Source of the DNA: a virus
Length of the DNA stretch: 64,000 nt
Reading direction: 5' to 3' (one strand)
Virus record (IMG/VR): IMGVR_UViG_3300015371_000027
Span: 3,072 to 67,071 of that record
Shown: piece after piece, positions 23,308-55,976 of the stretch
How the letters are laid out: each line of letters begins with the position of its first letter
Position numbering within the stretch: position 1 is the stretch's first letter
The notes under the pieces: model-generated
What the model saw: only the letters and a program-made list of their open reading frames with translations
Told to the model about the DNA's origin: nothing
Database searches by the model: none
Made by a program: the position numbers and the translations under genes

Positions 23308-23319
23308 AATTGTCTCCTT

Positions 23320-24013: not shown

Positions 24014-24979
24014 CTATTCCTCGTCCATGTCATCTTCATCTTCTTCTATAGGTTTAGTGTAATTACTAGGGTTAACACCAAAAGGTACATCAATAACATC
24101 GTCATCATTCGTTTCATCGACTATATTAGGTCTTTCTTTCATAAAACCAGCGTTTCGGCGCTCCTCCATAAACTTCCTAATTCCTGGAAGAGAACCTTTA
24201 GGCACCTGCATTAGCTTTTCTACATCATCAGCAATCATCTCCAGTATAGTTATATCCTTAACATGATTATTAACGATAGCGACCAGTCCAGTAGCAAACT
24301 GAATAGCCTGTTCTGCTGTTAATTGGCGCATTTTAGAAGAAATTAGCTTCGATTCTGTTTCGCTTAATTTCCTTCTATGCTCCTGATGCGTCTTAATTCT
24401 ATCTACAGATGCCTTTTTACTCTTAAACTGCTCTACAGCGATAGCAATAGCGTATGCTCTATCCCTTAATTTTTCTGTTCCTTTATGGGTAACATCGTCT
24501 GCAAGTTCGATGATATCAGCAGATAGTTCTTCTATAACCTTCATAGAAGCGAAATTGAAGTCCTTAAATCCTTCGATTTCTTCTGAAATAACAGCATCTA
24601 TAAAAGCTATCTCTGACTTTACCGACACAACTTCCTCGTCAGGAAGTTGCATCGTCGTAATGAAAGAACCAACCATTCCTGGAGGTAAATGGCTATATTT
24701 GGCCGTCATGCCCTTCATTTCGGGCATTTTTGCTAACGCTGTATTCTTCGGATAAGCTTTACCTTTATGCTTCCAGCATCTACCATTAGGTCCTACAGGC
24801 TTTCTAATACATATCTCATCATTTCCTAGCTGACTTATAGCGCCACAGATAGGTTCATTAGTTTTAGGATGGAGAGCAAATACCTTTGTTCCATATTCAT
24901 CTATATATAAGGGCTTTTTCTTATTTTTATAAACTAAATCTAGCCTTCTTTCATCTCCTTTTTTCTTCTTTACTTTCAT
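24014..24979 (-). CDS. Probable terminase small subunit (HGGxSTG-like Cys/His domain)
   Basis: ICGA....C.RKPVGPNGRCWKHKG motif plus helical oligomerisation region; upstream of terL. Confidence 0.55.
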   Translation of the reverse strand: MKVKKKKGDERRLDLVYKNKKKPLYIDEYGTKVFALHPKTNEPICGAISQLGNDEICIRKPVGPNGRCWKHKGKAYPKNTALAKMPEMKGMTAKYSHLPPGMVGSFITTMQLPDEEVVSVKSEIAFIDAVISEEIEGFKDFNFASMKVIEELSADIIELADDVTHKGTEKLRDRAYAIAIAVEQFKSKKASVDRIKTHQEHRRKLSETESKLISSKMRQLTAEQAIQFATGLVAIVNNHVKDITILEMIADDVEKLMQVPKGSLPGIRKFMEERRNAGFMKERPNIVDETNDDDVIDVPFGVNPSNYTKPIEEDEDDMDEE

Positions 24980-27346: not shown

Positions 27347-27484
27347 ATAACGTTATATAATAGGAAATCCCCCTGGACCCCCTATCGTGGGCTTAGTGAC
27401 AGTGTAATCTGGGTTACGCTGCCTTATATTTTATATTATCCTAAGTATAAGTATACTTATGAGTTATCTAAGTACTTAGTACTA

Positions 27485-27547
27485 AGTACTAAGTACTTAG
27501 TACTAAGTATAAGTAGTACTTATACTTAGTACTAAGTACTTAGTACT
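27485..27547. repeat. Perfect palindrome, 31-bp arms around G27516
   Basis: AGTACTAAGTACTTAGTACTAAGTATAAGTA-G-TACTTATACTTAGTACTAAGTACTTAGTACT checked base by base. Confidence 0.95.
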
Positions 27548-27558
27548 AAGTATAAGTA

Positions 27559-27584
27559 GTACTACTACTACGTAGTAGTAGTAC
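27559..27584. repeat. Perfect 26-bp palindrome
   Basis: GTACTACTACTACGTAGTAGTAGTAC. Confidence 0.95.
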
Positions 27585-28645
27585 CTTATTCGCGCACGCG
27601 CATGTATATATCATATACGCGCATGTGTATATGATATACGCATACGAGCAACTTCCCTAGCAACTTTTTCCTACATCACCTACCCTAAGCTCTAACACAT
27701 ACAATTATTCGCATAGCCTCCGACACATAGTAGCCACCCTAACGGTTAAACCGCCCGGAAGGATAATCGAACTCTACGGTTAATTATATAAGTATTCTTC
27801 CAGAAATAAGCGCGATTTTCTAAAATCTAAAATTTTTATTTTAGATCATATTTTCTTCCAGAAATAGGGGGGGGGTATTAATAATTAAAATAAGGTTTAT
27901 TTTCTAAATATTAAAATTTTTCTGTAATAAGGCTCCCGACTGTTTTCGAACCTACAATTCCCGGACCACCCCCTTATGGTATACACTTAACCCTTACAAC
28001 CCTGCCTAATGTAAATCGAGATTATATTGTCCCCCTAACAAGCCCTAACAAACGCCCTATTCGATTACTATTATTAGTTTCCCTTTAGTTTTTGCAACCT
28101 GGTCGTACATACCATTCCTCTCCTGGTCGTCCCTCTCTCGTCCCTCTCCCATCGCAGGCAGGGTTCCTCTCACCTTCCCTCGCCCATTGGCATACCCCTA
28201 GAAAGCGTCCAGAACTGCGAGAAAACCCTTCTACGTCCCTCTACGTCCTTCCGCCTCTCCCGTCTCTCTCGTTAAGCCCTTAAGAACCCTCGCCCCTTTC
28301 CCGAACCCCCTTTCCACCCTATTTCCTACCCCTAGAAAACGGGTCAGACATGTCTATGGAAAAGACTAGTAACCCCTTTCCGAACCCCCGCAAAACCCCC
28401 TGAGCAGCGAAACAATAGTAATCGAAACTACCCCATTTCTAAACATGATCTAAAGATTGTTTTCGTGTCTCCCGCCGTAGACAGGAACTATTTTCGTCCC
28501 TCTAAAATCCCTCTATATTTACCCGTCCCCTGGCCTTATCCGTCTCCCTTCCCATATTCCCCCTACCCATTACTATTACCCATACCCCATTTATATTCCC
28601 GCTCACTCTCCCGCAACAAACTCGCGCACCTATTCCTTCCAGAAC

Positions 28646-28674
28646 TTGACCTCTCATGTAGGAGTGGATAGGGT
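28646..28674 (+). promoter_or_regulatory. Putative early promoter
   Basis: TTGACC-N17-TAGGGT; CTTCCAGAA motif just upstream of the -35. Confidence 0.45.
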
Positions 28675-28680
28675 AGGGCA

Positions 28681-29530
28681 GACCCGAGAAAAAACGGGCC
28701 GGCGGAACTCCCTTACCGGGGTTCCCCTCTCCCCTCTCCATCCTTACCGACGCGAGAGGCGAACAGCAGACAGAGGAACTCTCTTAAACCTCTCCTGTAA
28801 TAACGGCGGATAGCTAACCCGATACAAAACACTCCCTTCCGGTTAGATCGGTTCCCGAAAGACGTTACTCTTTCCCGAACCCTTCTAGTGTGAACCGGCT
28901 AGAGACCAAAGGGAGAAAGCGGCGAAAAGCCCACTTGGTTGTAACCCTCTCCTTAAGAGACGGCCAGACGAGAATCGGAAGCTAAGGCAAACGAATAGAG
29001 AGAACGCGAAACCTTCCCTAGCAGGAAGGCGAACCGGCTAGCACTTCGAAGGCGAAAGAAGCCTCTACGGTTTCCCGAACCCTCTCGCTGTCCGATTCTC
29101 CCTCTTGCCTGTTCTTATCGACTAGGGACACCATAGGGTTTCCTTCCAGAGATTCCGGGTAGTAACGATACCCCATTTCGAAGGACGTTCTTTCTAGCTT
29201 CGTAGCTACAAACAGGGTTGATAATCGAATAACGGTATGTCCCTTATAACCCTTCCGATTCTACTCGAATCGCGGATAGTCTTAATAGGCGAGAAGGAAC
29301 CTCATTCCTTCTGAACCGAACCGACTAACCCTTTTCGAATGAACAGCGCGAAGGACGGTCTGATAGTTACCCGGAAACACAAGCGTAGCAGGAGAGGGAA
29401 CCACTAGCCTATCCGTACCAAGAGGTTCAATTCCCGACGGGAGTAGGTTCCTCGGTTTCCTACAGAGGAACTCCTGCGATGAAACCTACCCTTCTTCCCC
29501 GAAGGGCTAGGCTTACCGGGTAAAGTGTAT
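28681..29530 (+). ncRNA. Putative large structured non-coding RNA
   Basis: No credible ORF; several long-range complementary segments and hairpins; family not recognised. Confidence 0.5.
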
Positions 29531-29561
29531 GAATCCCTCAGGTTTCCTGCCTGAGTGGTGT

Positions 29562-29630
29562 TAGGTCTGGCAGGCAAAGGGTTTCCTGCGAGTGTATGCG
29601 ACACTTACCCGTTCGAATCGGGCGGACCTA
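29562..29630 (+). ncRNA. tRNA-like element 1
   Basis: TAGGTCTG/CGGACCTA stem; GCAGG..CCTGC arm; AGTGT..ACACT arm; CCCG-TTCGAAT-CGGG. Confidence 0.7.
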
Positions 29631-29675
29631 TTCCTAGCATAATGCTAGGCTGTTACCTTCCAGAGGTAAGTTTCC

Positions 29676-29858
29676 GTGATTATCCTAATCGAAGAGGAAG
29701 ACGGCCGTTTCTATGTCCTGTTCAGCAAGTCTGACTCTGGTATATGGCAGGAGTATGCCTGCTACCCTTCCCTGAGGGAAGCAAAAGACCGCGCAGGAAC
29801 CTTTGCCCGGCAGAATGGAACGGGATTCTTCCTAGCTGAGAACTACTTCTCAGACTAA
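29676..29858 (+). CDS. Small early protein
   Basis: 60 aa, GAGGT RBS, sits between tRNA-like elements 1 and 2. Confidence 0.6.
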   Translation: MIILIEEEDGRFYVLFSKSDSGIWQEYACYPSLREAKDRAGTFARQNGTGFFLAENYFSD

Positions 29859-29866
29859 CCGCAGCA

Positions 29867-29907
29867 GACAGGAATGGTTTCCAGAGGGTTCGATTCCCTC
29901 TCCTGTC
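29867..29907 (+). ncRNA. tRNA-like element 2 (minihelix)
   Basis: GACAGGA-ATGGTTTCCA-GAGGG-TTCGATT-CCCTC-TCCTGTC: 7-bp acceptor plus 5-bp T-arm. Confidence 0.75.
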
Positions 29908-29967
29908 CTGTCCCCATAACCCTCGGCAATCTAGCCAGGGGTTCCTTCCAGAGATAAGGTTACCATC

Positions 29968-31059
29968 ATGGCAGACACCTTTTACACAGCGTGCTACGCG
30001 TACGCCACCAAGCCAGACGGTTCGCCCCGTTTCCGCAGCATCTCCACAAACACGAGCATGCAGGGAGCAATCCTATCTGCTCAGAACTTCGACCGCCAGA
30101 ATCCGGGTAGCCTGGTGGTAGTAACAGACGGCAGTACACATCCTGTCTGGACGAATGAACCGGCAGAAGAGGACATTGAAGTATCGTTCCCTGCGTCCCT
30201 GACTGCCGTTCCCGAACCCATGCCCGTACCCATGCCCGAGATATCTCGTTTCGTCCCTATGTCCGAACAGGTTTCGGACGATACCCCTACCCAACCTACC
30301 CAAGAGGAGAATGACATGTCCAAGAATCGCAAGCGCAATCTGTTCTCGATCCAGACGCTGAACAACAAAGGCCAGTGGTACGACATTAAGACATATGCTG
30401 CCGCTCCCCAGAAGGACGCGTGCAAGCAGGAAACCATTCGTCTGGCGAAAGAGAACCCTGGCAAGCCTTATCGCGCGGTCGGACACAAGCCTCAGACTGG
30501 CGACTACGTGTTCTGGAATTCCGCGGACAGTACTAACCCTGAGATTAATCCGCCGACTCCTGCGCCTGCGCCTGCCCCTAAGGCGAAGGACGAGAAAACC
30601 GAGAAAGAGCGGGATTCGAAGGACGAGAAAGAGCGGGATTCGAAGGAGAGAGCGTTCTGTCTGCTAGTGGGACAGTTCATGAACACGCCCGATGATGCAA
30701 ACCTCGCGCGGCTTATACAAGCGGCAGTTTCTTTTCAGAAGTCTGCCTCTTCGCCTTCGACTCCGCCCGCTCCCGCTCCCCCCGCTCCTTTCTTCGACCG
30801 CGAGAAAGCGGTCCTCGCGGTTACCAATGCGCTTTCTAACGGTGCGGCGAATACCCGCGTCCTTCGGATGAGTCGGGTACAGGAAGGCGAGAACAAGAAG
30901 ACTCTCGTCCGGTTCGGGACCTTCTCCGGTGCGATTCTCGGAAACTGCAAGTTCGGTTGTTATGCGAACGACTCCGAAATGGATTCCCTCGCGGAGTCGG
31001 TTTCCTTCGCCTTCGTAGAGGAGAGCGAAGGCGAGAGACTCTACACCAAGAAGGTCTAA
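29968..31059 (+). CDS. Multi-domain early protein with Pro-rich linkers
   Basis: 363 aa; 24-bp tandem duplication (EKERDSKD) at 30601-30647; possible internal start at MSKNRKR. Confidence 0.7.
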   Translation: MADTFYTACYAYATKPDGSPRFRSISTNTSMQGAILSAQNFDRQNPGSLVVVTDGSTHPVWTNEPAEEDIEVSFPASLTAVPEPMPVPMPEISRFVPMSEQVSDDTPTQPTQEENDMSKNRKRNLFSIQTLNNKGQWYDIKTYAAAPQKDACKQETIRLAKENPGKPYRAVGHKPQTGDYVFWNSADSTNPEINPPTPAPAPAPKAKDEKTEKERDSKDEKERDSKERAFCLLVGQFMNTPDDANLARLIQAAVSFQKSASSPSTPPAPAPPAPFFDREKAVLAVTNALSNGAANTRVLRMSRVQEGENKKTLVRFGTFSGAILGNCKFGCYANDSEMDSLAESVSFAFVEESEGERLYTKKV

Positions 31060-32394
31060 CCCGTCTCTCTCTCTCGTCCCTTTCTACCCGCCGGATAATC
31101 TCCGGCGGGTATTCTCGTCCCTGTCTCTTCGTCTCTAGGAGATAACCCATGTCCGCTAAGCCCATGTTCCTCGTCTTCGGTTTTACCCCTGCTTCCATGC
31201 GACAAGTTCCTGAGGGAACCCTCGTATACGTTATACGAGCAAACCCTACCCGGAAGAAAGGACGGGGTGGATTCGAAGTGTTCGCTGGACCTTGTACTGC
31301 TGAGCGAGCTATCCCTCTTTCCGAAGAGCACGCTGCTCTTGCCCATGCCCGTCTAACCGAAGCGGGATATACCCGTGTTACCTGCGTTCCCGTTCCCTCT
31401 CTTGCGTCTGTACGCCCCTTCTAGGAGTATCCCTGTGTCTACCTGTACCCGTCCTTCGCCTTCGTTCCTCTTCGTCGTACGTCCGAAGGGTTCCCGACCG
31501 GAAACCTTCCCTGCTGACATGCTGCGGTACGATGCCTGCGAACCTGCCGATGAAGTTTCGCGCTATCTAGTGGAAACGAGGAACGCGAAAGGACGTTCCA
31601 TTCCTACCCTGTCCGGTATTGCCCTTCGTTCCCTTCGTTCCCCTACCCCTGAGCGGTGGGAGTCCTTCGGTTGGTCGGTAGTATCTGTTACCCGCGAGAA
31701 GGTAAAGGAGTAACCCTGCCATGCGTATCTCAGACATGCGAACCGCTAGGATGAAAGGCGAATACATCGCTGTTTCGTACGACCGCAAAGGTGTCTGGCA
31801 GCAGACATGGCTAGTCGGTTGTGATCTACCCGACGCGATAAAGGAAGCTCGACATATCCGGGCGTACGTGAGCAACGGTTCCCGCGTGGAACTACAGGAT
31901 GATAGGAATCGCCCCGTCGTAACCTTCTACTCCGCCCGCTAACCCTCGTCTCTCGTCCCTAGGAACCCGTTAGCTAACCCTAGCGGGTTTCTTCTCTCGT
32001 CTCTCGTTCCCGTTAAGGAGTAAACCCATGTCCGAATCCAAATCCGAACCCTTCTGGAATGAAGTAGCGAACCACCTACCCGCATTCCAGGCGAGAGTAA
32101 TCGCGTTTGCTGCTCGCCTTTCGACAGATCAGAGAGTATCGCGGTATTGCCAGCGGCTGATACTGGCCGGCTATCGCTTAGACGGTAGTAAGAAGCCGGG
32201 CGTCATGGCGTGGCTAATGCGAAATGGGCATGCGGGATTCGTCCCGTCCCCTAACATGCCCTACTATGGCGATTATGTCCGTAATGGTTGGGCAAGTAAT
32301 GAGTACGCCCGACGTGCTATCGCGGGTATGGATACCCATACCGTAAAGGAGTAATACTCGTTAATCCTCTCTCGCCTTTCCCCCGCTATCCCGT

Positions 32395-32474
32395 AGGAAC
32401 GCTAGGAAGGTCCCTAGCATATCTCCGATTCTTTTCCAGAGATATTGTGTCGGGTTCGATTCCCGACCGTTCCT
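32395..32474 (+). ncRNA. tRNA-like element 3
   Basis: AGGAACG/CGTTCCT; CTAGG..CCTAG; ATATCTC..GAGATAT; GTCGGG-TTCGATT-CCCGAC. Confidence 0.78.
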
Positions 32475-33364
32475 GTGTCCCCTACCCTCTCCTAGAAAGG
32501 AGCAAGTTCCCATGTTCCGTTTCCGCACCCGTCGATATCGCGTGTTCTGCGAGAAGGATGGAGAGACTCTCTTGGTGTCTGAAACCATGGGCGACCATGG
32601 CAGGGTTGTCTGTGTCGGATTCTCTCGTTCCTTCCCTCGCGACGGTTCGCTAACGGGTTTCCATTGGTCGGAAAGCTATGCTAGGAAGATCGTTTCCTGC
32701 CTGAGGGACGTTCCTGGTGTATCGAATATCCGACGAGAACTCGTCTCTTCGGAATCCCTCTATGGGTCGTACTGCCTGTAAACCCTAGCGCGTCTCTAGC
32801 GCGTTCTCTCGTCCGTACCCTACGATCCTAGCAGGAGAGGGTTCCTAACCCTCTCCTGCCTTCCCTTCTCCCTTTTAGGAGTATCCCTGTGCGTATCCCT
32901 AACCGTTCAGACATAAAGGTATCCTGTCCCTCATGCGGGCGTTCTTTCTCGCATGGGATTCCCTTCATGGAACATGCGACGGTCGTATACAGGCGAACCT
33001 GTCAGAATCCCGATTGCCGGGAAAAGTGGAACCTCGTAGTTAAGCCGTTAGGTGGTAAGCCTAAGCAGTACTTCGCCCATGAAGTAACCTTCGCCTTCCT
33101 AGGAGTAAAGGAGTAAATCCATGCGCTCGATTCCTTCCCCGGAGAAGTATCTCTCTACCGTCTATCGACGCGCTAAGCGTGCTCGTATGCATAGCCTAGA
33201 GGATAAGCTTAAGCATACCCGCCGAAAGCTTCGTACGACTATCCCCTACGCTAACCCGTACTGGGAGTATTGGTTCGAACGATACGAACACCTGTCTGCT
33301 GCTTTAAGAGTAAATAATACCCGCAACCAAAGTAATACCCGCTAACCCTCGCTTAGGTTAGGGT

Positions 33365-33449
33365 TCCCTTTGCCCGTACGGTACGGGACCTATCTATCCT
33401 TACCTTCCAGAGATAGGATGGATAACGCGGTTCGATTCCGCGCGAGGGA
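33365..33449 (+). ncRNA. tRNA-like element 4
   Basis: TCCCTT/GAGGGA; CCCG-TACGGTA-CGGG; CCTATCT..AGATAGG; CGCGG-TTCGATT-CCGCG. Confidence 0.78.
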
Positions 33450-34914
33450 GTAGTGTATCGGAATAATCCGGTCGCTAGATCGCTTCGGTTAAGAAGCGCT
33501 AGGAGAAACCGTTCCCATGAGTTACCCGCAAGTGTATCTGTTCCCTCGTAGCGATGGAAACTGGTGGTACGAGCGTTTTAATACCCGTAAGGATTCCTTC
33601 GTGGAATCGACGGGTCTGCCCGTAGGTATCTTTACCTTTCAGGCAGTAGAGTTCTTGCTAAGGAATGGCGGAGCGTTTCCCGAAGGAACCTTCTTTGACT
33701 ATCGCAATAGCGAAGTGGAATGGTTAGAAGCAGGCAACCCTAACCATACTCCTAAGGGTTACGGTCCTTTATCTCTGGAAAGAAAAGAGGTTTGGAGTAA
33801 CACGCAAACGAGAGGGAAGGTATCTGTAAGCCAATTCTGCATGGATAGCATGTGGTATCCCCTTCAGGATTGCGCGGGTAGTAGGGTATTACTTTCGCAA
33901 GAAGGCTTTAGTACGCCTGAGTTAGCATGGGCGTTTGTAAAGGAGAACAGGTAAACAAACCATGCCCCGATCTATCGTGCTACGAAACGCGCAGTATACT
34001 GCGTTAGGTATCGCGCTTCACTTCATCAAAGGAGTACGTATCTTTTTCGACGAAAAAGACGTTAAGTATAACGGAGTAATCCTCGCTATGGAAAGGTACG
34101 CTATGGAAACTCCTATCACGCATTACTTCATTCTACTGCGGATAGAACACTGTCCTAAACCTGTTCGCTTTCTCGTCCCTGTCCGCCCTTCGACTAACGT
34201 TATCTCTTCCAGAGATAACCAGGAGTAAGGAGTAACCCATGCCCGAACAAGAACAGGAACCAATTTACGCTATCTATCGCTTCGTATCTAAACAGGAGTT
34301 AGGTACGCCAGGAGTTATGGAAGTAACGAGAGACTTCGTACGCTCCTACGCTTCTCCCGTGGTAGCTATGGGCCATGCCCTAACGATCAAACATAACTCC
34401 GATCCAGACTATGTTTGGATTAGGGTTAAGAACCTGGCGACAGGAGAATGGATAGAGGTTAACTAGCCATGCATATGTACGACATAGGTAATCTTCCCGT
34501 TCCGCCTATCGAAGAGAGAGGACCGTTTCCCGAAGAGGAAGAGATAACCGTCTCTTATTCCGAAGCCGGACGAAGGATTTACTACCGTTCGCCTAGCGGT
34601 AGTACCTACCCTGCGACGGTTCTATTCCGTCTCTCTACGGGTTTGTATCGTCTCTCTGTAAACGGTAGACCCGTTTATGCTTCTCCCGAACAGGTAAGTT
34701 AACCATGCGACGGCTTTACTACATCGAAAACACGGTACGTACGAATACCATACTGTCCTCTTATCCCGAGGAAAGGGTTATCGAGAGGATTAAAGAGCAG
34801 TACCCGGATGTTAAGTTCATCTATCGAGAAACTACTTCAAAGGAGTATGATGCTATGGATGGAGAACAGTATGTATTACTATGGGAAAGAGATAAGTTAG
34901 ACTAACTATTTCAC

Positions 34915-35002
34915 AGGGAAACACGCTTCATGGAGCGGTCCTTATCTTATCTCTGGAAGGAAAGGTAAGGATGTAATAGGGTTCGAATCCCTATGCTTCC
35001 CT
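34915..35002 (+). ncRNA. tRNA-like element 5
   Basis: AGGGAA/TTCCCT; CGCT-TCATGG-AGCG; TCCTTATCTT..AAGGTAAGGA; ATAGGG-TTCGAAT-CCCTAT. Confidence 0.78.
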
Positions 35003-37647
35003 TTCCCTTACTTAACAATCCCGTTAAGAAGGGCGTTTGCATCGAGAGGGTTATTATGTACTCGGTAGACGTTAAGCTTCCCGTTTCCGCTAAGGCAGGC
35101 GCGTGGCAGTTTGTTAAGTACTGCGGTTCTATCCCTGTAGCGGAGAAGGACATTAACAGGGTAAAGTCTCTTTCCAGAGATAACCCAGAGTTCCGCATTC
35201 GTGATACCCGAACGAATAAGATCATTCGTTCTTACTAGGAGAGGAAGAGGAAAAAGAGAATGTCTAAGCTTATTAAGAACCCGACTGTGTGGGAATCTGT
35301 GCCTGTGTGGGAATCTGTATCCGGTATCCCTACAGAACAAACAATTTACTCTGTTCACATAATCAATGATATGATGATTGAGAGTGGAGGTGTAATGTTT
35401 TCTAGCTTAGAGAAAGCGAAGGAGTATGCGGAAAATCTGAAAGTAGTCCCTTATATATCCATGATCTATATCATAGAGAGTAAGCGTGTTTGTGTAGTTA
35501 AGAACGGGCAAGAGGAGAAAGAGAATGCTTAGGTATGCTGTTTACTTCGGAGAAATAGAAGTAGCTAACTTCGTTATGGGTATCCATGCCATGAAGTTTG
35601 CTCGGGACACGTTTAATGCGAGAGAAAAGGGCATGCTCTACTGCTCGATTAAGGTGGTAAACAAAGAGACAGGACACATCCCCGTCTATTACGAAGAGGT
35701 AAAGGAGTAACCCATGCCACTTAAGTTCGTAGAACCGGAAGCACCTAAATACGAGGTATGGTATCTCTTGCAGGATAGATACCAAGGTAAACCTTCTTTT
35801 GTTTCGAAACAAGAAGCCCTTAACTTCTTGGTAAAGCTTAAGAAGAAACCCGATCTCGTAGAGGCTAGACTCTACAGGGTAAGTAATAGGCTGTCCTACC
35901 ATAACGAGGACATAGACCCGAGAAGGAGTCTCTAGCTACCCGTCGAAGTTAATAGTAGAGACGAAACTAAACCCTTTGTCTCTACTTCCCCATACCGGAC
36001 TATTCCGGTAGTTCCCTCGCTTCTAGTAAAGGAAAGGAAAACCCATGCGAAGAGTAAGGAAGGGAAAACCCGCTTTCTACACTGTGACAGTAGAAACTAA
36101 AAAAGTAATAAACGGATTAAACGGATACAGTCGTATCTTTAACTCTGAAGAGAAGGCTAATGCTTTTGCCCAGACAATTCTGGAAAGAGAGAATACTGAA
36201 CTTCTAAAAGAAGTATCCATCGTTAAAACCGTAACCCTGGTTTGCTTCTCTAACGATCCGAAGAAGGAAGATTATGAGTAAAGATAAAGCCCTTCCGATA
36301 GCGATATTCCTGTTCGTTATGTTTGCCATATCTATGGCGATAGGAGATTTAACAATAGCAGCAGTACTGATAATGTCTGCTGTTATCGTGCTTATACTAG
36401 AAAGGGGAAACTAGGAATGCCTAAAGATGGTAATTATGGAATGCAAGCATTAGAACCAGACGATGGTAATACCACTTGCGAGTTCGAATATTCGCAACCA
36501 GAGTTTCCTACCCGATATCAAATCGTAATATACGAAGACGATCTAACGCCCGTCTTTTATGCATGGTCGGAAGACGAGTTAATATGGGTTACTATAACTC
36601 CCGAAGTAATGCCTAGAGAAGCAGTACAAGCCCTTAAGATTGCTGTATGGTTAGAGATGAAAGGAAGAGAGATTAACTCTCTTAAAGATGAACTGTTTCC
36701 TGAAATGCGACTTAATATGAAAGGAAGAAAATAGAATGCCGACGCCAGACGAGATTATGCAGGATAAGGAGTTATCTTCCAGAGATAAGCTTGCGCGTAT
36801 GAGGAAACTCGTATGCGAACTTCCTAAAGGAAGTAAAATGTACCATCTTGCAGTTAAGTACTGCGGGCAACTGTACGACTATGTATTAGATGAAAAGTCG
36901 GAAATAGGTAAAGTCATGATCGAAGTAGTAGCGGCTCGAAAGAAGACGTATGTTAAGCCAGGAGAAATTTTCATATCCGCTAACCCATATAGCGAGGTAT
37001 GTATGCATATGAAGGTAGCTGGAAAGCTACAAGCCAAATACATTACCACGGGTAGATATCCGATGGTACAGCTTCTCAATCTAGAAAACCCTGCTCTCCC
37101 TTGTCCTTTCTCCTTCCCTATTACACTAGGAGAAGGCGGAATATATAGGGAAGACGAAGGGAAATATTACTACGTTCCCGAATATGCGATTAATATTCCC
37201 GAAGCAGTATATGAGTACGATAATGGGTTCTGCTACTACGACGAAGTACAGGGGAATGTAGGACCTTTTTCTTCCAGAGATGAGGCTGAGAAGGATAGAG
37301 CAGCCTACATAGACAAGCTTATAGAAGAGAGGAGAAACGAGAATGTCGGGTAGATATCGCCCCGTTAGCGAGGTAACGAAAACTATTCTTATGATTATTC
37401 CCGATACGGAAAAGGCAATTAAGAATGAGTTTAAGGAAGCTACCCGGCATATTATGTCGAGTGGCCCGTATCGTGCGCCTGAGGATCAGGCTGATCTCTG
37501 GAAAGAATTACTGTATGCATTATCTAGCATCGTAGGGGACCCTGGAGAAAGAGAATGGGCGATTAAAATATCGCTCATTATGCGCGGGAAAATTGACTAC
37601 AGAATATACATGCCATCCCATAAAAGGGATGAGAATAGGAGCTAAGC

Positions 37648-38022
37648 TTGTTATTATTGCTGAGGTATGAGGAAGTAGAAGAGAAGCTAAGAGCGTGGCA
37701 AAAGATTCTACGCTTACAGGATTGGTTTGTGGAAGTAGAAATAGTTCGCAAGCATGAAATGGAATGGCATACTTCTAAAGGAGAGGTATGGACGAGAACT
37801 AATGCTAATAGGGCATTGATTAAACTACTTGACCCTGTGGACGATACTTGTCCTAAAACTGATCCTTATGATATGGAAGAAACTCTCGTGCATGAGTTAC
37901 TACATCTACATATGGATAGGTTCGAACCTCCGAAAGAGGATACGATTAGGAGCAACGAATTAGAGCGAACTATAGATACATTAGCAAACGTGCTAGTAAA
38001 TCTGTATAGGGATAGGAGCTAA
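37648..38022 (+). CDS. Zincin-like metallopeptidase domain protein
   Basis: EETLVHELLHLH (HExxH) with downstream E. Confidence 0.7.
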   Translation: MLLLLRYEEVEEKLRAWQKILRLQDWFVEVEIVRKHEMEWHTSKGEVWTRTNANRALIKLLDPVDDTCPKTDPYDMEETLVHELLHLHMDRFEPPKEDTIRSNELERTIDTLANVLVNLYRDRS

Positions 38023-38031
38023 CGTTTAGGT

Positions 38032-38097
38032 TTCCCTCGTGCTCAGGTAGCTTATTTCCTTTCAGAAATAAAGAGCGTTCGAATCGCTCCGAGGGAA
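38032..38097 (+). ncRNA. tRNA-like element 6
   Basis: TTCCCTCG/CGAGGGAA; GCT-CAGGT-AGC; TTATTTC-CTTTCA-GAAATAA; GAGCG-TTCGAAT-CGCTC. Confidence 0.8.
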
Positions 38098-38149
38098 TGC
38101 TCCCTATTAACAATAGAGTTAATGGGAGTATGTGCCAGGAGAAGGATAA

Positions 38150-38539
38150 ATGTCTAAGGGAGTAAAGCAGGTTAAGCGTATGTCCATTGTCGGCCTTAAG
38201 GTAGAAAGGGTAATTGATGAGGAAGAAGTAACAGTCGCATGTGAGACTAATAAAACGCATTATGCCCTTACGACGGATGGAACTAGTGTTAGTTATCACC
38301 TATCGCTAGATGATGCTGACTCTTTCATTAAATGCGAGTACGAGGAGGTTCCGCCTAGAGTAATTCAAGCTTTTGCAGAAGACCTTCTGGAAATTGCATG
38401 GGATCAAGCGAAGAAGCTTCGGAAAGAAGAAGACGACGAAGATGAAGATAACGAAGACGATGAGGATAGCGAGGACGAAGAGGGCGAAGACGAGGAGGAA
38501 GAAGATGAAGATGAAGATGAAGATGAAGACGATGACTGA
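38150..38539 (+). CDS. Protein with poly-Asp/Glu C-terminal tail
   Basis: Last ~37 aa almost all D/E. Confidence 0.7.
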   Translation: MSKGVKQVKRMSIVGLKVERVIDEEEVTVACETNKTHYALTTDGTSVSYHLSLDDADSFIKCEYEEVPPRVIQAFAEDLLEIAWDQAKKLRKEEDDEDEDNEDDEDSEDEEGEDEEEEDEDEDEDEDDD

Positions 38540-38563
38540 ATAAATAATAATATAAAAAGAATA

Positions 38564-40433
38564 ATGGATATATACGAGGGTCGAACAAAACACCACGACA
38601 ACAGTATATATGATATATTCATGGCTCTAGTTCATATAAAACCTGCTTCTTTATGCTGTAAATCCAGTTTAGAGGAGCTAGGTTTATATAAGGGTATACT
38701 AAAACTGGCAAAGTGTGAAGGGTTAACAACTGCTTTATGGTTAGGTACGATTATCGTAGGTAAGAAAGAGAGTGTGAATGAGATAGTAGAAGTATTCACC
38801 AAAGGTATAAGGGGTAACGAAAGGCACAGACGACTTGGTAAAGCGTTAGGTTATTCTGATGAGATGATCGAGCAGTTTATAAGGAAGATAGACGAAGATG
38901 AAGACGAGGACGAAGAATGAAGACGACACAATATGTATGCGATAGCTGTAATAAACCGTTTGAACCAGGCTACAATAAGGAAGGAGGTATAGCTTCCGAT
39001 ACGGAAGATAAGTATATAAAGATAAAGGAAGGAGTGTACCTGTTCATCTCTGGAAGTAATTATGGGAAAGATGCCCATAGCTACAAAGGAATTGTGAGAC
39101 CTACGGATATCTGTATGAAGTGTATTGCCGTCGCTCTAGGGTTAAATCCTAACCCTACGTTTAAGCTTAAAAAGGGAGAGAGTTACGATGTTTAATGTAT
39201 CGAATGCGGCTGATGGTGGAATTCTTATCGAAGCCGAAGAAGAGAACAAGTTTTCTCTTATCGTTAACGTCTCTATCGAAGAGGCTTATGATCTTGCAAA
39301 GGAGCTAATGAAAGCCGCTATTATGGCGGAGATGAAGAAGGCTACGTTTAAGGTTCCGTCTTCTACTCCTACCTCGCCACCTATCAAGGTAGGAACAATA
39401 TCGGGAGGAAAGTTAGAGATAACTAATCCTACTGTTACTGCTCCCGTTAGTAAGCCGAAGGAAGAGAAGAAAGATAAGGAACCTGTCCTGATTATTACGC
39501 CTGATATGATTGACGAAGAGGAAGATGAGGACGAGGACGAGGATACTCCCGCCGATCCTTTTGCAGACGAGGAAGAGAAAGAGGAAGAGGAAGAGGAAGA
39601 GGAAGAGGAAACTCCTCCGCCAGTAGAAGTACCTGCTCCTAAGAAGAAGAACGGGAAGAAAAAGAAGAAGTAATTAAGTAAGTAGAAGGATTCCCTGGCT
39701 ATGGTAGCTATTTCTGGAAGTAAAGGATTTACTAGGGTTCGATTCCCTAGCAGGGATTTACTCTAATAGTAGAGTAAGAAAGAGAGAAGGGTAATGCTTA
39801 CACCTCATCAGCAGTATCTTGCTAGGGTAGAGAAGGAGAGGAAGGAATGGGAAGAGAGAAGGGAAGAGGCTTTACATATGCCTTACGCTCTTATGCAAAT
39901 GTCTCCTCGTAAGTATGCTGTAATATACAATATTGGTAACCATTATTCTGGAAACGATCTTATTCCTGTTCCTCGATGGGGAATATCAGTAGGGAAACTA
40001 GATTATACGGAAGCACATGATATGGTAACTCGTCTTAATCGAGAGTATAGAGAGAAAGTAAATGCTAAAAAGGAAAAAGATTAAAGATTATATATTAGAA
40101 CCAAGAACAGAAGTAGAGGAAGAAAAGGAAGAACTAAGACCAAATCCGCTTAGCCTCTCTGACTCGGAACGTCTGAAGCAAGCTAGACAAGTGGCGGAAG
40201 CAAGCAAGAGTAAGTACGCCATTCTAGCCAGGACTGTGCGGAAGACACAGTACGGAAAATATGTACAAACCTTTACAATCCTCGTTCGGAATCCCGAACC
40301 TCATCTACTTGGTAGCCACGAATTACCCATTTTCGAATACAAGCCACTTTACAGTCTACTGTCCAAGAGAAGCTTAGCTAAGATGCTCTGTAAACTGCAC
40401 GAAGCAGAACTTGACGAGGAAGAGAAAGGATGA
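38564..40433 (+). other. Hypothetical genes 38564-38920, 38917-39195, 39188-39673 (acidic with Lys tail), 39794-40084, 40062-40433
   Basis: Coupled plus-strand ORFs. Confidence 0.65.
39690..39758 (+). ncRNA. tRNA-like element 7
   Basis: TCCCTG/CAGGGA; GCTA-TGG-TAGC; TATTTCTGGAAGTA; CTAGGG-TTCGATT-CCCTAG. Confidence 0.78.
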
Positions 40434-46869: not shown

Positions 46870-48333
46870 GTGTCTGTACGAACTGGCCTCTTTCTTTATT
46901 TATTTCCAGAGATGAAAATCCCAAAGAAGCAGTTACCACCGCTTAGAGAACTAATGCCCCACCAGCAAGAAGCATTTGATAAATACTTCAGGATGTATAA
47001 ACATCCTGCCCTATTTATGAGAATGCGTCTTGGCAAAACACTTCTGGCTATTCGATGGGTTAAGTCGCTTCGCCTAATAAAGAATGTTCTGGTTGCCTGT
47101 CCGGGTCCCGTGATTAGGGAATGGGAGAAGGAGCTAAAGTTAGAGAGAGAAGAATATATTCGCTTCTGGTCTCTTCCAACCGCGAAAAAGATACCAATTC
47201 TGGAAGAAAATTGGGATGATCCTAATCGAAAATGGTTTCTATCTAATTACGAAACTATACGGGTTTCGCCAGGATTAGTCAATCTTAATTGGGATGTAGT
47301 GATAGCTGACGAGGGGAAGATCATAGCTAACACTAAATCCTTTATAGGACAGCTTTTTGTTTTAGGGTTTAGAGAAACCAGGCATAGATGCCTATTAAAT
47401 GGAATGCCATTTTCCGAACATGAGCTAGAGCTATTTAACCAGATGAAGTTTCTCGACGGACATTTTTTGGGCCATGAAAATTTCTGGAAGTATAGACATG
47501 CTTTCTTTCAGAAATACGATAACTGGAATTGGTCGCCAAAGCCAGGAACGAGAGAGAAGCTTAAAGTAGAAATACATAAAAGAGCATTTGTAAAGACCCG
47601 TAGAGACGCAGGGATGAAAGAAAGCTGGACTCATCAGGTTCGGCGTATAGAAATGTCAGATAGCCTGCGTCGGATATATAAGGATATAGAATACGATTTT
47701 GCATTTCAGATAGAAGTAGGTAAAGAACAGCTTTCCTTCGAAACGAAGTATGCTCCTGTTCAGTATATATGGCTACTTCGTTTGTGCGGAGGGTTCAGTC
47801 CTACCGCAGATATTATCCTTTCTCGACAGAAGATAAACGAATTAATAGCACTTCTGGAAGGAGAGCTATGCGATGAAAAAGTAGTCATATGGTTTCACTT
47901 TAAGAAAGAACTGGAAGAGATATCTAACACACTAACAAAGCGTAAGATAGAACATGTGAACGTGTATGGAGATGTTAAGAGTAAAGCCGAGAGAGATAGA
48001 AGGTTGGATGTATGGAATAAAGATAAGAATGTGAAGTTCTTATTAGCTACAGAAAGTATCATCAAATATGGAGTAGACTGTTCTGTAGCTGATACAGAGA
48101 TTTACTATTCCAATGATCCATCATATGCTATCAGAGCACAGAGTAAAGAGAGAATCTACCATCCGAAGAAGAAAACTAATCTCTTATGTATTGACCTGGT
48201 TATGGCTGATACAGTAGATGAAGATATGGTAGACCTTCTTAATGAAAAAGGTATGAGTGAAAAGATGTTCATGATGAGGATGGCAGATAGGTTTGAACAG
48301 AGGAGATATAAAGGTGTCAGTACGAGAGGTTAG
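46870..48333 (+). CDS. SNF2-family helicase/ATPase
   Basis: LMPHQ, MRMRLGKT, LVACP, SNYE, WDVVIADEG, EKVVIW, YGVD, QSKERI motifs. Confidence 0.85.
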   Translation: MSVRTGLFLYLFPEMKIPKKQLPPLRELMPHQQEAFDKYFRMYKHPALFMRMRLGKTLLAIRWVKSLRLIKNVLVACPGPVIREWEKELKLEREEYIRFWSLPTAKKIPILEENWDDPNRKWFLSNYETIRVSPGLVNLNWDVVIADEGKIIANTKSFIGQLFVLGFRETRHRCLLNGMPFSEHELELFNQMKFLDGHFLGHENFWKYRHAFFQKYDNWNWSPKPGTREKLKVEIHKRAFVKTRRDAGMKESWTHQVRRIEMSDSLRRIYKDIEYDFAFQIEVGKEQLSFETKYAPVQYIWLLRLCGGFSPTADIILSRQKINELIALLEGELCDEKVVIWFHFKKELEEISNTLTKRKIEHVNVYGDVKSKAERDRRLDVWNKDKNVKFLLATESIIKYGVDCSVADTEIYYSNDPSYAIRAQSKERIYHPKKKTNLLCIDLVMADTVDEDMVDLLNEKGMSEKMFMMRMADRFEQRRYKGVSTRG

Positions 48334-48769
48334 TAAGGACACAGATTATTGGTCTCATACAGAAGTTGATATTAGAGTTAATGCTGTTAACTGTATGGGA
48401 GTAATGGGAAAAGGTATTGCTCTAGAATTCAAGAAGCGATATCCTGGCATGTATTACGATTACTTAACTAGATGTAGTAAGAGAGAGATAGAGCCCGGCG
48501 GTATTCTTGCCTATAGAAAGGAAGATGTACACATACTTAATGCTGTTACTAAGTATAAATGGCAGGAGCCATCTAAGTATTTATGGATCGCATTAATAGC
48601 TTGCGGGCTTAAACATTATCTATCTATTCATCCAGATAAAAAAGTAGCTCTACCAGCATTAGGATGTGGTAATGGTGGACTTAAGTATGAGGTAGTAAAG
48701 GAGATAATAATAGACGAACTCAACGATAGTTGTGCAGATATTCTACTATTTCCTCCTTGGAGCAAATGA
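48293..48769 (+). CDS. Macrodomain (DarG/Poa1p-like ADP-ribose hydrolase)
   Basis: VNAVNCMGVMGKGIALEFKKRYP and ALPALGCGNGGL signatures. Confidence 0.9.
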   Translation: MNRGDIKVSVREVSKDTDYWSHTEVDIRVNAVNCMGVMGKGIALEFKKRYPGMYYDYLTRCSKREIEPGGILAYRKEDVHILNAVTKYKWQEPSKYLWIALIACGLKHYLSIHPDKKVALPALGCGNGGLKYEVVKEIIIDELNDSCADILLFPPWSK

Positions 48770-48980: not shown

Positions 48981-49331
48981 ATGAAAAAGCTTGCCTTTAC
49001 AGGACATAGAAATAAGTTAGCTAACCCAGACGATCTACGAATAGCTACCTATAAGTATAGAGGTTATGAATGGGTACACGGAGGTGCAAAAGGATTTGAT
49101 ACACAAGTAGATAATCTCGCTAAAGAACTCGGCGTAAAAGTTACAGTTATCCGACCGGACTATGAAAATAACCCGCCTAAAATAGCACCTCTACTTCGTA
49201 ATCACGATATAGTAAAAGGAGCTAAACTATTAATTGCTCTTTACGATGGACGAAAAGGAGGCGGTACGTTATACGCAATTAACTTTGCTAAAAAATCAGG
49301 CGTTCCTGTCCATATTATAATTCCCGAGTAA
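48981..49331 (+). CDS. YspA/DUF2493 SLOG-family protein
   Basis: FTGHR...VHGGAKGFD...APLLRN...YDGRKGGGTLYAI. Confidence 0.82.
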   Translation: MKKLAFTGHRNKLANPDDLRIATYKYRGYEWVHGGAKGFDTQVDNLAKELGVKVTVIRPDYENNPPKIAPLLRNHDIVKGAKLLIALYDGRKGGGTLYAINFAKKSGVPVHIIIPE

Positions 49332-55731: not shown

Positions 55732-55976
55732 TGTCTAAAAGTCGTACTCTTTATACATTAAAAGCTGGACTTAATCAGGGTAATGTTATATATGTAAAGA
55801 AGTCCGAACTCCCTGTGATTAAGAAGTATGAGAAGTTCTTAAAGCGTAAACCAAAGATGTTATCTCTGGATAATAGAGGTAGACCTAAATATAGTGAGAA
55901 GGACGAGAAATACATTAAAGCCGACCCGGAGTTACTAGCTTATGTAAAACGACTAGGAGTTCAATTAGATGAGTAA
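55716..55976 (+). CDS. Hypothetical basic protein
   Basis: 86 aa coupled ORF. Confidence 0.5.
   Translation: MGRCLMSKSRTLYTLKAGLNQGNVIYVKKSELPVIKKYEKFLKRKPKMLSLDNRGRPKYSEKDEKYIKADPELLAYVKRLGVQLDE

Follow-up and report, generated by a model that had tools for sequence, protein, structure and literature searches.

Six tRNA-shaped elements, E2 to E7, lie between the early genes of a soil phage, on the plus strand at positions 29867-39756 of the window (the 64,000-nt stretch of DNA that was analyzed). In E3 to E7, the sequence TTYCAGAR, a form of a word that is dispersed over the whole genome, occupies the arm equivalent to the anticodon arm of a tRNA; in E2 it is found in the linker. Why should a genome-wide word sit at the anticodon position of a tRNA mimic? 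The original prediction offered two answers: either an unconstrained arm is simply colonized by the motif, or the tRNA scaffold displays it as a guide, decoy, or kissing sequence. The motif strings quoted there for E2 to E7 were all found in place (Table 1). Its element 1 (about 29380-29450) has a fold z-score of +0.52 and is missed by the descriptor that detects the other elements, and it is not retained here as a tRNA mimic.

Table 1. The tRNA-like elements, the motif copies that they carry, and the hairpins that follow them (window coordinates; MFE, minimum free energy).
Feature	Position	Strand	Structure	Motif
E2	29867..29907	+	Minihelix; 7-bp acceptor-like stem GACAGGA/TCCTGTC; T arm GAGGG-TTCGATT-CCCTC; fold z-score -3.28; descriptor match	TTTCCAGAG, 29878-29886, occupying the linker and extending into the T stem
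E3	32395..32475	+	MFE cloverleaf; z-score -4.61; arm with 7-bp stem ATATCTC/GAGATAT and 13-nt loop	TTTCCAGAGATA, 32433-32444; sense motif TTCCAGAGAT, 32434-32443 (loop, TTCCA; 3' stem strand, GAGAT)
E4	33364..33450	+	Cloverleaf; 10-bp arm; descriptor match	CTTCCAGAGATA, 33404-33415; sense motif, 33405-33414, mainly in apical loop
E5	34915..35001	+	Cloverleaf; 11-bp arm; z-score -3.33; descriptor match	TATCTCTGGAAG, 34948-34959; antisense ATCTCTGGAA, 34949-34958, in apical loop
E6	38032..38098	+	Most tRNA-like; 7-bp A/T arm stem, 6-nt loop; z-score -2.87	CTTTCAGAAATAA, 38059-38071; degenerate sense motif TTTCAGAAAT, 38060-38069
E7	39692..39756	+	Cloverleaf; weak arm (4-bp stem, 8-nt loop); z-score only -0.51; descriptor match	TATTTCTGGAAG, 39709-39720; one-mismatch antisense motif ATTTCTGGAA, 39710-39719
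Hairpins after E4	33451..33516	+	Ahead of next start codon; z-score -3.17	
Hairpin after E5	35002..35056	+	CCCTTACTTAAC...GTTAAGAAGGG; directly after E5	
Hairpin after E6	38099..38149	+	Directly after E6; z-score -2.66	
Hairpin after E7	39757..39793	+	9 bp; directly after E7; z-score -3.01	

All six elements have an acceptor stem and a T arm of the GGTTCGAWTCC type. A descriptor combining these two parts matches exactly E2-E7 in the genome, versus a mean of 0.05 matches in shuffled sequences (n = 20). The cloverleaf is the unconstrained minimum-energy structure of E3-E7, the stem sequences of which differ among elements, whereas E2 folds as an acceptor/T-arm minihelix. The canonical T arm (5-bp stem closed by G53-C61, loop TTCRANN) is present in all six, with GGTTCGAWTCC or GCGTTCGAATC at the T loop. 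With G-U allowed, the 7-bp acceptor stem is fully paired in E2, E3, E4, E6, and E7, the register of E7 being a shorter alternative to its folded cloverleaf, and has 6 of 7 pairs in E5. The arm that carries the motif stands between the D and T arms at the anticodon-arm position, 1 nt past the D stem and 3-5 nt ahead of the T stem, and the motif is split between its loop and its 3' stem strand. The elements do not have a canonical anticodon arm (5-bp stem, 7-nt loop, U33, purine 37). The apical loops of the minimum-energy folds are 6-8 nt long, but in E3, E4, and E5 they sit atop inner helices of only 2-3 bp; without these, the main-stem loops measure 13, 14, and about 13 nt, respectively.

Are the elements then tRNAs? 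No Rfam family matched anywhere in the window at its gathering score, and within the canonical tRNA clan, at E-values up to 10, the only hit was tRNA-Sec against E3 (21.8 bits; gathering score, 47). Membership in the Rfam mascRNA-menRNA family (RF01684) was rejected: the matches of E2 (22.6 bits) and E5 (20.1 bits) are weak and far under the gathering score of 42.5. ARAGORN in its default run reported E6 alone, as tRNA-??? with a 2-base 'anticodon', and none of the six elements reached the tRNA threshold. True tRNAs are found in related phages, for Asn in G002 and for Thr in G005 and L033. Thus, the elements share the cloverleaf, the T loop, and the 7-bp acceptor stem with canonical phage tRNA genes but differ from them in arm loops of 6 to about 14 nt, in tiny D loops, in the missing 8-9 linker of E3, and in attaining no tRNA model threshold.

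Each of E3-E7 stands alone in a 120- to 171-nt spacer between same-strand genes; spacers of such length are otherwise rare between these small genes. Hairpins begin directly 3' of E4, E5, E6, and E7, that is, of four of the five cloverleaves. Those after E4 may cap the 5' end of the mRNA that follows, and the spacer hairpins following E5 and E6 are paralogous to each other (local alignment score of 15; none of 200 shuffles exceeded 10). The acceptor stem and the T arm are the parts of a tRNA that are read by RNase P, RNase Z, and the CCA-adding enzyme, and, judged by structure alone, the elements offer an acceptor/T-arm minihelix of the kind readable by RNase P and RNase Z. Known relatives in kind are mitochondrial tRNA punctuation, the t-elements of plant mitochondria, and the MALAT1 mascRNA. 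Like these, the phage elements combine an acceptor stem and a T arm with no decoding anticodon loop, and they are sited between the cistrons of a polycistronic unit; unlike these, they belong to a phage early operon, come as six paralogous copies with downstream hairpins, and are only candidates for cleavage. From shape and position alone, we infer that RNase P and RNase Z may process E2-E7.

The consensus of the dispersed motif is yCTTCCAGAGAT, with the core CCAGAG. The 10-mer TTCCAGAGAT occurs 32 times in the window versus 0.24 expected, and the 67,071-bp genome (G000) contains 35 exact and 57 one-mismatch copies. The motif is found on both strands and in all reading frames: of the 35 exact copies, 6 fall between genes by an uncurated ORF set, and the others run with the gene in 17 cases and against it in 12. 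The proteome is distorted by it, as the peptide SRD occurs 17 times versus 4.2 expected and is encoded by TCCAGAGAT in 12 of the 17 cases, although TCC makes up 12% of Ser codons. A hairpin stem of at least 5 bp is found at no more than 3% (G000) to 15% (G006) of the copies, approximately as in permuted controls. No strand polarity was detected along any of five genomes, and plus and minus counts are balanced in each decile of G000, G006, G007, and G008; the absence of polarity speaks against a Chi-like recombination signal. The mycobacteriophage cluster A stoperators are mostly intergenic and have one orientation relative to transcription. The motif is similar to them as an asymmetric word of about 13 bp that is present genome-wide in tens of copies and differs among related phages; however, 29 of its 35 copies are called inside ORFs, in both orientations. 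Stoperator-type repressor sites were rejected on these counts.

Related phages have their own variants of the motif (TTCCAGAGAA, TCCCAGAGAA, TACCAGAGA, CCGGAGCCGG): we counted 21 copies of TTCCAGAGAA in G006, 17 of TCCCAGAGAA in G007, 27 of ACCAGAGAA in G008, and 46 of CCGGAGCCG in G003. The motif position is shared at 4 of 103 orthologous aligned sites. Large excess, presence on both strands and in all frames, and positional turnover are features of uptake sequences and HIP-like words, which the motif resembles in behavior; a shared mechanism does not follow. Dispersed genome words selected for density include the Haemophilus USS, the Neisseria DUS, the cyanobacterial HIP1, and Chi. Like them, the phage motif, a word of about 10 nt, exceeds expectation more than 100-fold, occurs on both strands and in every reading frame, leaves its mark on peptide content, and is not kept in place from one relative to another. 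Unlike them, it belongs to a phage lineage, with variants that differ by phage, and it lacks the polarity that Chi would show. In this phage lineage, the motif behaves as a signal at the level of DNA, and it would be favored for density, not position.

The arms of the elements are nevertheless far denser in the motif than other non-coding DNA. The 196 nt of arm contain 5 copies of TTCCAGA (25.5/kb), compared with 14 copies in the 7,358 nt of non-coding DNA elsewhere (1.9/kb) and 92 in the 59,285 coding nt (1.55/kb). The excess over other non-coding DNA is about 13-fold (at least 5 copies, Poisson P = 4.4e-5, with the caveat that paralogy of the elements makes the six arm copies mutually dependent), and plain colonization of the arm at the background rate is therefore rejected. 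In all five spacers that hold one element, the only TTYCAGA lies inside the arm, whereas 6 of the 20 other spacers of at least 50 nt have any copy. By position weight matrix, the arm copies do not stand out within the motif family: their ranks are 3, 14, 32, 59, 65, and 109 of 119.

E2-E7 are, on the evidence of their sequences, a paralogous family. When the E5 arm is reverse-complemented, it agrees with the E4 arm block CCTTACCTTCCAGAGATAGGAT at 20 of 22 positions; for the E6 arm and the reverse-complemented E7 arm, 14 of 16 positions agree. These two pairwise alignments point to an inversion of the hairpin apex, although part of the similarity in both pairs could stem from the extended motif consensus. 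The motif is in the sense orientation in E2, E3, E4, and E6 and in the antisense orientation in E5 and E7, a pattern that would have arisen because the apex inverted between paralogues. Within the arms, the motif block is preserved best, and the D arms of most elements are unalignable. This suggests that the arm copies may be under stronger constraint than the coding copies, for which the turnover comes only from comparisons at about 30-40% protein identity.

The explanation that we favor, and in which we place about as much trust as doubt, is that E2-E7 are tRNA-like RNA-processing units, the free hairpin apex of which inherited a motif copy and kept it. They would form a paralogous set within the early, rightward operon of a siphovirus-like phage of 67 kb, constrained in their acceptor stem and canonical T arm, and their job would be done at the RNA level, likely by punctuating and stabilizing the polycistronic early transcript. 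The anticodon-equivalent arm would not decode, and the sole demand on it would be to form a hairpin. The arm of the ancestral unit would already have held one copy of the motif, which would then have been duplicated along with the unit and flipped by apex inversion (E4 versus E5, E6 versus E7). Because the motif appears to be favored anywhere in the genome, and because a copy would be free of cost in a sequence-free loop, the arm copy would have been retained. On the other side, permissiveness alone cannot yield a 13-fold excess over other non-coding DNA, and it leaves unexplained why all five element spacers have the motif when 6 of 20 other spacers do. The stronger constraint suggested for the arm copies also counts against this explanation.

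There are several rival explanations. Pure chance co-occurrence of motif and arms is extremely improbable: with paralogy there were perhaps one or two founding events instead of six, and at non-coding density a 30-nt arm would contain a copy with a probability of about 0.06, but the motif was retained in all six diverged paralogues while the remaining arm and the D arms diverged. Alternatively, the arm word may come from a real tRNA arm resembling the motif by chance, such as a class II UUCCA-GAAA-UGGGG variable-arm hairpin. The pattern TTCCAGARAT-N(3-30)-GGTTCGAWTCC was found in 96 stretches of bacterial genomes; 31 of the 80 loci examined are called tRNAs by ARAGORN (22 Leu, 8 Ser, and 1 Glu), and among the listed Leu(UAA) and Ser tRNAs the word is placed within the long variable arm, in most cases with 8-10 nt between it and the T arm, similar to the 9-nt spacing in E3. 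However, the arms of the phage elements are at the anticodon-arm position and offer no GGGG strand to pair with, two of them (E5 and E7) are inverted, GAGAT predominates over GAAAT in the phage word, and a few such tRNA families would be expected by chance in 596 Gb by our own, uncomputed estimate; this makes such an origin highly improbable. The motif could also be a promoter-, operator-, or leader-like signal that each long spacer needs, lying in the arm by happenstance. Intergenic CCAGAGA in relatives is co-oriented with genes in 18 of 26 cases, and in many of these copies a start codon follows 10-35 nt later. A longer form (TTCTACCAGAGAGAACGGGGAACC) is repeated in G008, copies are enriched about 3-fold within 40 nt upstream of starts, and in G000 a copy stands 12 nt ahead of the first early gene, at 29946. 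We nevertheless consider this very unlikely: 14 of the 20 other G000 spacers of at least 50 nt have no copy, the distance from an arm copy to the next start is 69-110 nt, with both orientations represented, the majority of copies lie far inside genes, and a sigma-70-type scan was at chance (15 versus 16.5). Equally unlikely is presentation in single-stranded DNA, in which the cloverleaf or arm hairpin would extrude during replication or packaging and its loop would offer the motif, orientation being irrelevant, to a DNA-level reader. The motif is indeed orientation-free, and it co-occurs with candidate readers, namely, a CCCH zinc-finger, terminase-small-subunit-like protein (window 24014-24979) in five genomes (G001, G003, G006, G007, and G008) and a DnaG-type primase in four (G003 and G006-G008); neither protein nor motif was found in G002, G004, and G005. 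However, a DNA hairpin has no need of a conserved tRNA T loop, the zinc-finger protein is also present in L021, where CCRGAG is unenriched (9 versus 8.4 expected), and its structure model is poor (pLDDT of 57.6).

Display in RNA would require a stable, processed small RNA, the arm motif of which acts as a decoy for a motif-reading protein or pairs, in a guide or kissing interaction, with transcripts that bear the motif. The 13-fold excess and the conservation of the motif block are in keeping with it, most of the motif is predicted to be unpaired in E4 and E5, and the two polarities would permit 10- to 12-nt pairing between elements and with mRNAs of either sense. On the other hand, there is no common presentation: the probability that motif positions are unpaired varies by element and spans 0.00 to 1.00, the 3' half of the motif (GAGAU/GAAAU) is buried in a stem in E2, E3, and E6 (unpaired probability of no more than 0.01), and the copies in E6, E7, and E2 are the degenerate ones, at ranks 59, 65, and 109. 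The genomic copies also lack the sense bias that an RNA target needs. Relatives have the motif without the scaffolds: G006 has 30 copies of TTCCAGAGA and no tRNA-like match. Nine related records contain no clear homologues of E2-E7. Moreover, none of the three convincing tRNA-like matches in G007 and G008 contains CCAGAG or carries its own genome's motif, which is weak evidence, as they are not clear homologues of E2-E7. We therefore regard display as unsupported and unlikely. Of the two observations that were to count against it, equal motif density in other DNA was not found, the arms being denser, whereas motif-free arms in the tRNA-like elements of relatives were. A further possibility, more doubtful still, is that E2-E7 are natural tRNA scaffolds, which tRNA-processing enzymes would excise from the early transcript. 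Accumulating as small RNAs, they would show the DNA word, in one polarity or the other, to a putative reader; the zinc-finger protein and the primase are candidates for being titrated in this way. In the engineered 'tRNA scaffold' for RNA expression, a laboratory design, an insert replaces the anticodon arm. E2-E7 likewise have a foreign sequence at the anticodon-arm position of a tRNA body recognizable by processing enzymes, but they are natural, and any RNA role of the inserted word is putative.

If the motif were displayed in RNA, both signals would be joined in one regulatory system, and if E2-E7 were natural scaffolds, their RNAs would imitate phage DNA and, by titrating the reader, set the timing of replication or packaging, akin to 6S RNA mimicking an open promoter. 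Of the original proposal that the two signals are linked, the linkage stands; most probably, descent and retention account for it, not base pairing. In the explanation that we favor, the motif and the tRNA-like elements would be found together through descent and permissiveness, and a guide, decoy, or kissing mechanism would be unnecessary.

Six tRNA-like elements, E2 to E7, lie on the plus strand between window positions 29867 and 39756, and they are the only matches in the genome to a descriptor that combines a T stem of 5 bp with a closing G-C pair, a TTCRANN loop and at least six of seven acceptor pairs (shuffled genomes gave 0.05 matches each). The descriptor search and its shuffles were used in place of a covariance model, for which the 5' side of a MAFFT alignment of E3-E7 was too poor. 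In unconstrained folding, E3, E4, E5, E6 and E7 form cloverleaves and E2 forms an acceptor/T-arm minihelix. An extra candidate, element 1 (~29380-29450), had also been proposed as a tRNA mimic; neither folding nor the descriptor search supports it. None of the six elements passes as a canonical tRNA, and the main-stem loops of their anticodon-equivalent arms range from 6 nt in E6 to 13-14 nt in E3, E4 and E5. Rfam returned no match at the gathering score and only weak ones at E-values of up to 10, and the 117 calls made by ARAGORN with introns allowed at low stringency are noise. Contigs from four DNA runs were short, near-identical pieces in which the elements showed no variants. In titles and the opening lines of abstracts we found no description of such elements or of the word discussed below, although one may still be published.

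The acceptor stem and the T arm, through which RNase P, RNase Z and the CCA-adding enzyme recognize their substrates, are the conserved parts of the elements. The early operon has few long spacers, and each of E3 to E7 is the sole element in one of them; a hairpin directly follows E4, E5, E6 and E7 on the 3' side (z-scores of -3.2, -1.2, -2.7 and -3.0, respectively), and another precedes E4. Predicted sigma-70 promoters (15 vs 16.5 expected) and terminators (20 vs 13) between 27 and 41 kb gave no signal tied to the elements. This layout would suit elements that punctuate a polycistronic transcript and leave the neighboring mRNAs with structured ends. In kind, we place E2-E7 with tRNA-like processing elements; their phage lineage is marked by a striking dispersed word.

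That word, with the core CCAGAG, occurs in the anticodon-equivalent arm between the D and T arms (the linker in E2), in sense orientation in E2, E3, E4 and E6 and in antisense in E5 and E7; every string that the original prediction quoted from these arms was confirmed at its stated position. Motif density is far from equal in all unconstrained DNA: the 196 nt of arm sequence contain 5 copies of TTCCAGA (25.5/kb) and the remaining 7,358 nt of noncoding DNA contain 14 (1.9/kb), a 13-fold excess, and coding DNA has 92 copies in 59,285 nt (1.55/kb). In all five single-element spacers, the sole TTYCAGA is inside the arm, and any copy at all is found in only 6 of the 20 other spacers of at least 50 nt. 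However, the arm copies are not independent, because the arm of E4 matches the reverse complement of that of E5 at 20 of 22 positions, E6 matches the reverse complement of E7 at 14 of 16, E6 and E7 have acceptor and D-arm sequence in common, and the spacers 3' of E5 and E6 are homologous (a score reached by none of 200 shuffles). Thus, the elements are paralogues, copied together with the arm and partly with the downstream hairpin. Inversion of hairpin apices occurs in other genomes, and the alternation of sense and antisense copies is what inversion of the apex would be expected to produce.

The 64-kb window is part of a single contig of 67,071 bp, at the ends of which the same 40-nt context recurs with two differences (genome positions 192 and 66818; window -2879 and 63747), suggesting terminal redundancy or a circular assembly. 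The gene set (tape-measure protein, portal and large terminase; SNF2-type helicase, DNA polymerase I, DnaG-type primase and exonuclease; an AAA_24 protein, a Holliday-junction resolvase and an N6/N4 DNA methylase) identifies a siphovirus-like phage. Genes for Macro-domain, SLOG-like and ThyX-like proteins may serve in counter-defence or nucleotide modification. The late genes extend to the left from ~27.3 kb; those for early functions and replication point the other way, starting at 29.97 kb. The gene-free region between these divergent arms, all seven of whose own TTYCAGA copies are on the plus strand, probably corresponds to the origin and to the control region for the early genes. The GC content drops steadily over the early genes (window 30000-36000), from 56% at 30-32 kb to ~41% beyond 36 kb. 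In the first 3.4 kb of these genes, which are GC-rich, the motif is absent from coding sequence and present only between genes (29946, E3 and E4).

Features of the phage genome and of related contigs (window coordinates for this phage, record coordinates for G007 and G008)
Feature	Genome	Position	Strand	Remarks
Zinc-finger protein, 321 aa	this phage	24014-24979	-	invariant C-C-C-H, long helices; upstream of terminase and portal genes
Gene-free region between divergent arms	this phage	27349-29967		2.6 kb, GC-rich (~51%); includes E2 and unsupported element 1
Macro-domain protein	this phage	48293-48769		
SLOG (YAcAr-like) protein	this phage	48981-49331		below Pfam cut-off
DnaG-type primase, 749 aa	this phage	58560-60809	+	CHC2 zinc ribbon and Toprim
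Long ThyX-like protein	this phage	61056-62048		
tRNA-like element	G007	17999-18112	-	class-II-like long variable arm, very short 'anticodon' loop; missed by ARAGORN
tRNA-like element	G008	55755-55863	-	class-II-like long variable arm, very short 'anticodon' loop; missed by ARAGORN
tRNA-like element	G008	55886-55963	-	78 nt, partial fold only; missed by ARAGORN

Across the genome, the motif behaves as a DNA word and not as an RNA signal. We counted 32 copies of TTCCAGAGAT in the window (0.24 expected) and 35 in the whole genome, which has another 57 at one mismatch, and position counts over the genome copies give the consensus TTTyC-TTCCAGAGAT-rrrg. Copies occur on both strands and in all usable frames: in an uncurated ORF set, 17 are co-oriented with a gene, 12 are anti-oriented (two of them in doubtful antisense ORFs) and 6 are intergenic. 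The proteome is bent by the word, with 17 SRD tripeptides vs 4.2 expected, 8 SSRD vs 0.3 and 5 LWK vs 1.6; SRD is encoded by TCCAGAGAT in 12 of the 17 cases, although TCC makes up only 12% of serine codons. Several known kinds of signal were considered and rejected. No strand polarity of the Chi or KOPS type was found along the genome; hairpins with stems of at least 5 bp form in at most 3% (this phage) to 15% (G006) of copies, near the values of permuted-partner controls; and the flanks, judged by eye from position counts, lack the consistent pairing of an anticodon stem-loop mimic.

Near relatives were found neither in the phage collection nor, by single-protein searches, in IMG/VR, where a motif-plus-T-arm pattern returned three matches, all unrelated. 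On one unrelated IMG/VR contig (L002), the anticodon region of a tRNA-like gene at 3483-3527 carries TTTTCCAGAGAT and, after it, ~25 additional bases; the motif is present there as a single copy. More distant contigs were reached through portal homologues with 32-48% identity, and nine IMG/VR records (G001-G009) were examined in full, G009 being identical to part of G007. The over-used words are TTCCAGAGAA in G006 (21 copies), TCCCAGAGAA in G007 (17), ACCAGAGAA in G008 (27), CCGGAGCCG in G003 (46, with CCGGAG at 274 vs 30.6 expected) and CGCCAGA in G001 (206, with CCAGAT at 146 vs 22.3 expected); G002, G004 and G005 have no CCRGAG excess. Together they make up a word family with the core CC(A/G)GAG and phage-specific flanks (TTCCAGAGAT, TTCCAGAGAA, TCCCAGAGAA, TACCAGAGA, CCGGAGCCGG and CGCCAGATC), represented in G001, G003 and G006-G008 (loci L107-L109, L113-L115 and L129-L140). 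In the relatives, too, the words occupy both strands and all frames. A copy is common to only 4 of 103 aligned sites in orthologous proteins; the conserved feature of the word is its density and not its position. The replication module is common to this phage and its CCAGAGA relatives G006-G008 (tblastn of its proteins against G001-G008). In G008 (L137-L140), a longer intergenic repeat, TTCTACCAGAGAGAACGGGGAACC, with six related copies, lies 5-10 nt upstream of start codons (e.g., at 23315, 26913 and 37590, numbered in gene-sense orientation) and could be a motif-based promoter or leader. Words containing CGATCG are hugely over-represented in G001 (L107-L109; CGATCGC, 196 vs 10) and G004 (L116-L118), which additionally has GAAAGGGTTCAGG; they recall the core of cyanobacterial HIP1.

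How, then, did the word come to sit in the arms? Most probably, the link arose through descent and retention. In the reading that we favor, with about as much doubt as confidence, the arm would be a hairpin with no sequence requirement, the apex of which acquired a motif copy once; this copy would then have been inherited and flipped among the elements and kept by the same genome-wide pressure that maintains motif copies elsewhere. On the other hand, the arms have a 13-fold excess over other noncoding DNA, and no portion of the arm is better preserved than the motif block; both observations suggest more than passive retention. Such retention would be accounted for if, as originally predicted, the tRNA scaffold displayed the motif as a guide, decoy or kissing sequence, but we consider this unlikely: the structural presentation of the motif is inconsistent between arms, the arm copies are of ordinary or degenerate quality (position weight matrix ranks of 3 to 109 among 119), and genomic copies have no sense bias. 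The same note asked whether homologous elements in phages with another motif carry that motif instead. Nothing in the relatives is clearly homologous to E2-E7; the descriptor search finds no tRNA-like element in G006, the relative with the closest motif, and the elements of G007 (one) and G008 (two) are of another build and contain no CCAGAG. The motif thus occurs without tRNA mimics and mimics without the motif, which counts against one obligatory system; display as an add-on peculiar to this phage is compatible with these data. In sum, the association of the two signals is real and nonrandom, and nothing found points to a guide, decoy or kissing role.

The remaining explanations are minor. 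Co-occurrence by chance has to be set against a Poisson P of 4.4e-5 for the arm enrichment, a naive value that treats the copies as independent. Among the relatives, word copies are ~2-fold enriched in intergenic DNA and ~3-fold directly upstream of start codons, as a gene-start signal might be, and presentation of the motif in single-stranded DNA carries similarly little weight. Descent of the arm word from a real tRNA arm finds a parallel in bacteria. A scan of bacterial genomes with TTCCAGARAT-N(3-30)-GGTTCGAWTCC matched 96 stretches; 31 of the 80 loci examined are real tRNAs by ARAGORN (22 Leu, 8 Ser and 1 Glu). In the Leu(UAA) and Ser rows displayed, the word is the variable-arm hairpin UUCCA-GAAA-UGGGG, a stable GNRA hairpin found in several phyla: TTCCAGAAAT forms this hairpin in tRNA-Leu(UAA) of many Burkholderiales and in tRNA-Ser of Planctomycetes, Saccharibacteria and others (loci L146-L221). 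The word adjoining a T arm is thus not exotic in itself; however, the arms of E2-E7 differ from the class II variable-arm hairpin in position, pairing and orientation.

Two proteins are candidate readers of the word, judging from their distribution. The zinc-finger protein is present in G001, G003, G006, G007 and G008 and absent from G002, G004 and G005 by tblastn (the G001 row, with an internal stop, was left out of the homologue comparison); the DnaG-type primase is present in G003, G006, G007 and G008, all with CCRGAG words, and absent from the same three genomes. The association between the zinc-finger protein and the motif is imperfect, as locus L021 has the protein and no CCRGAG excess, and L084 has a 2.5-fold CCAGAG excess and lacks the protein in the portion examined. 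The protein belongs to no Pfam family, has two database matches, one of which is itself, and yields a structure model with a pLDDT of 57.6. Its nearest named Atlas clusters are terminase small subunits (0.76-0.79, to be taken as a lead), and it may be a small terminase subunit of a zinc-finger type.

Display of the motif by the arms, if real, would have no natural precedent: a nucleic-acid mimic on a tRNA scaffold, connecting a small RNA with a DNA signal that spans the genome. If the ordinary reading is true, an array of non-decoding tRNA-like units punctuates the early operon of a phage, and a word specific to its lineage saturates the genomes strongly enough to rewrite peptides. Because tRNA finders and Rfam miss such elements, similar arrays in other uncultured phages may be overlooked. 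Of the two phenomena, word saturation is the more interesting, since two candidate proteins for its reader are open to direct test.
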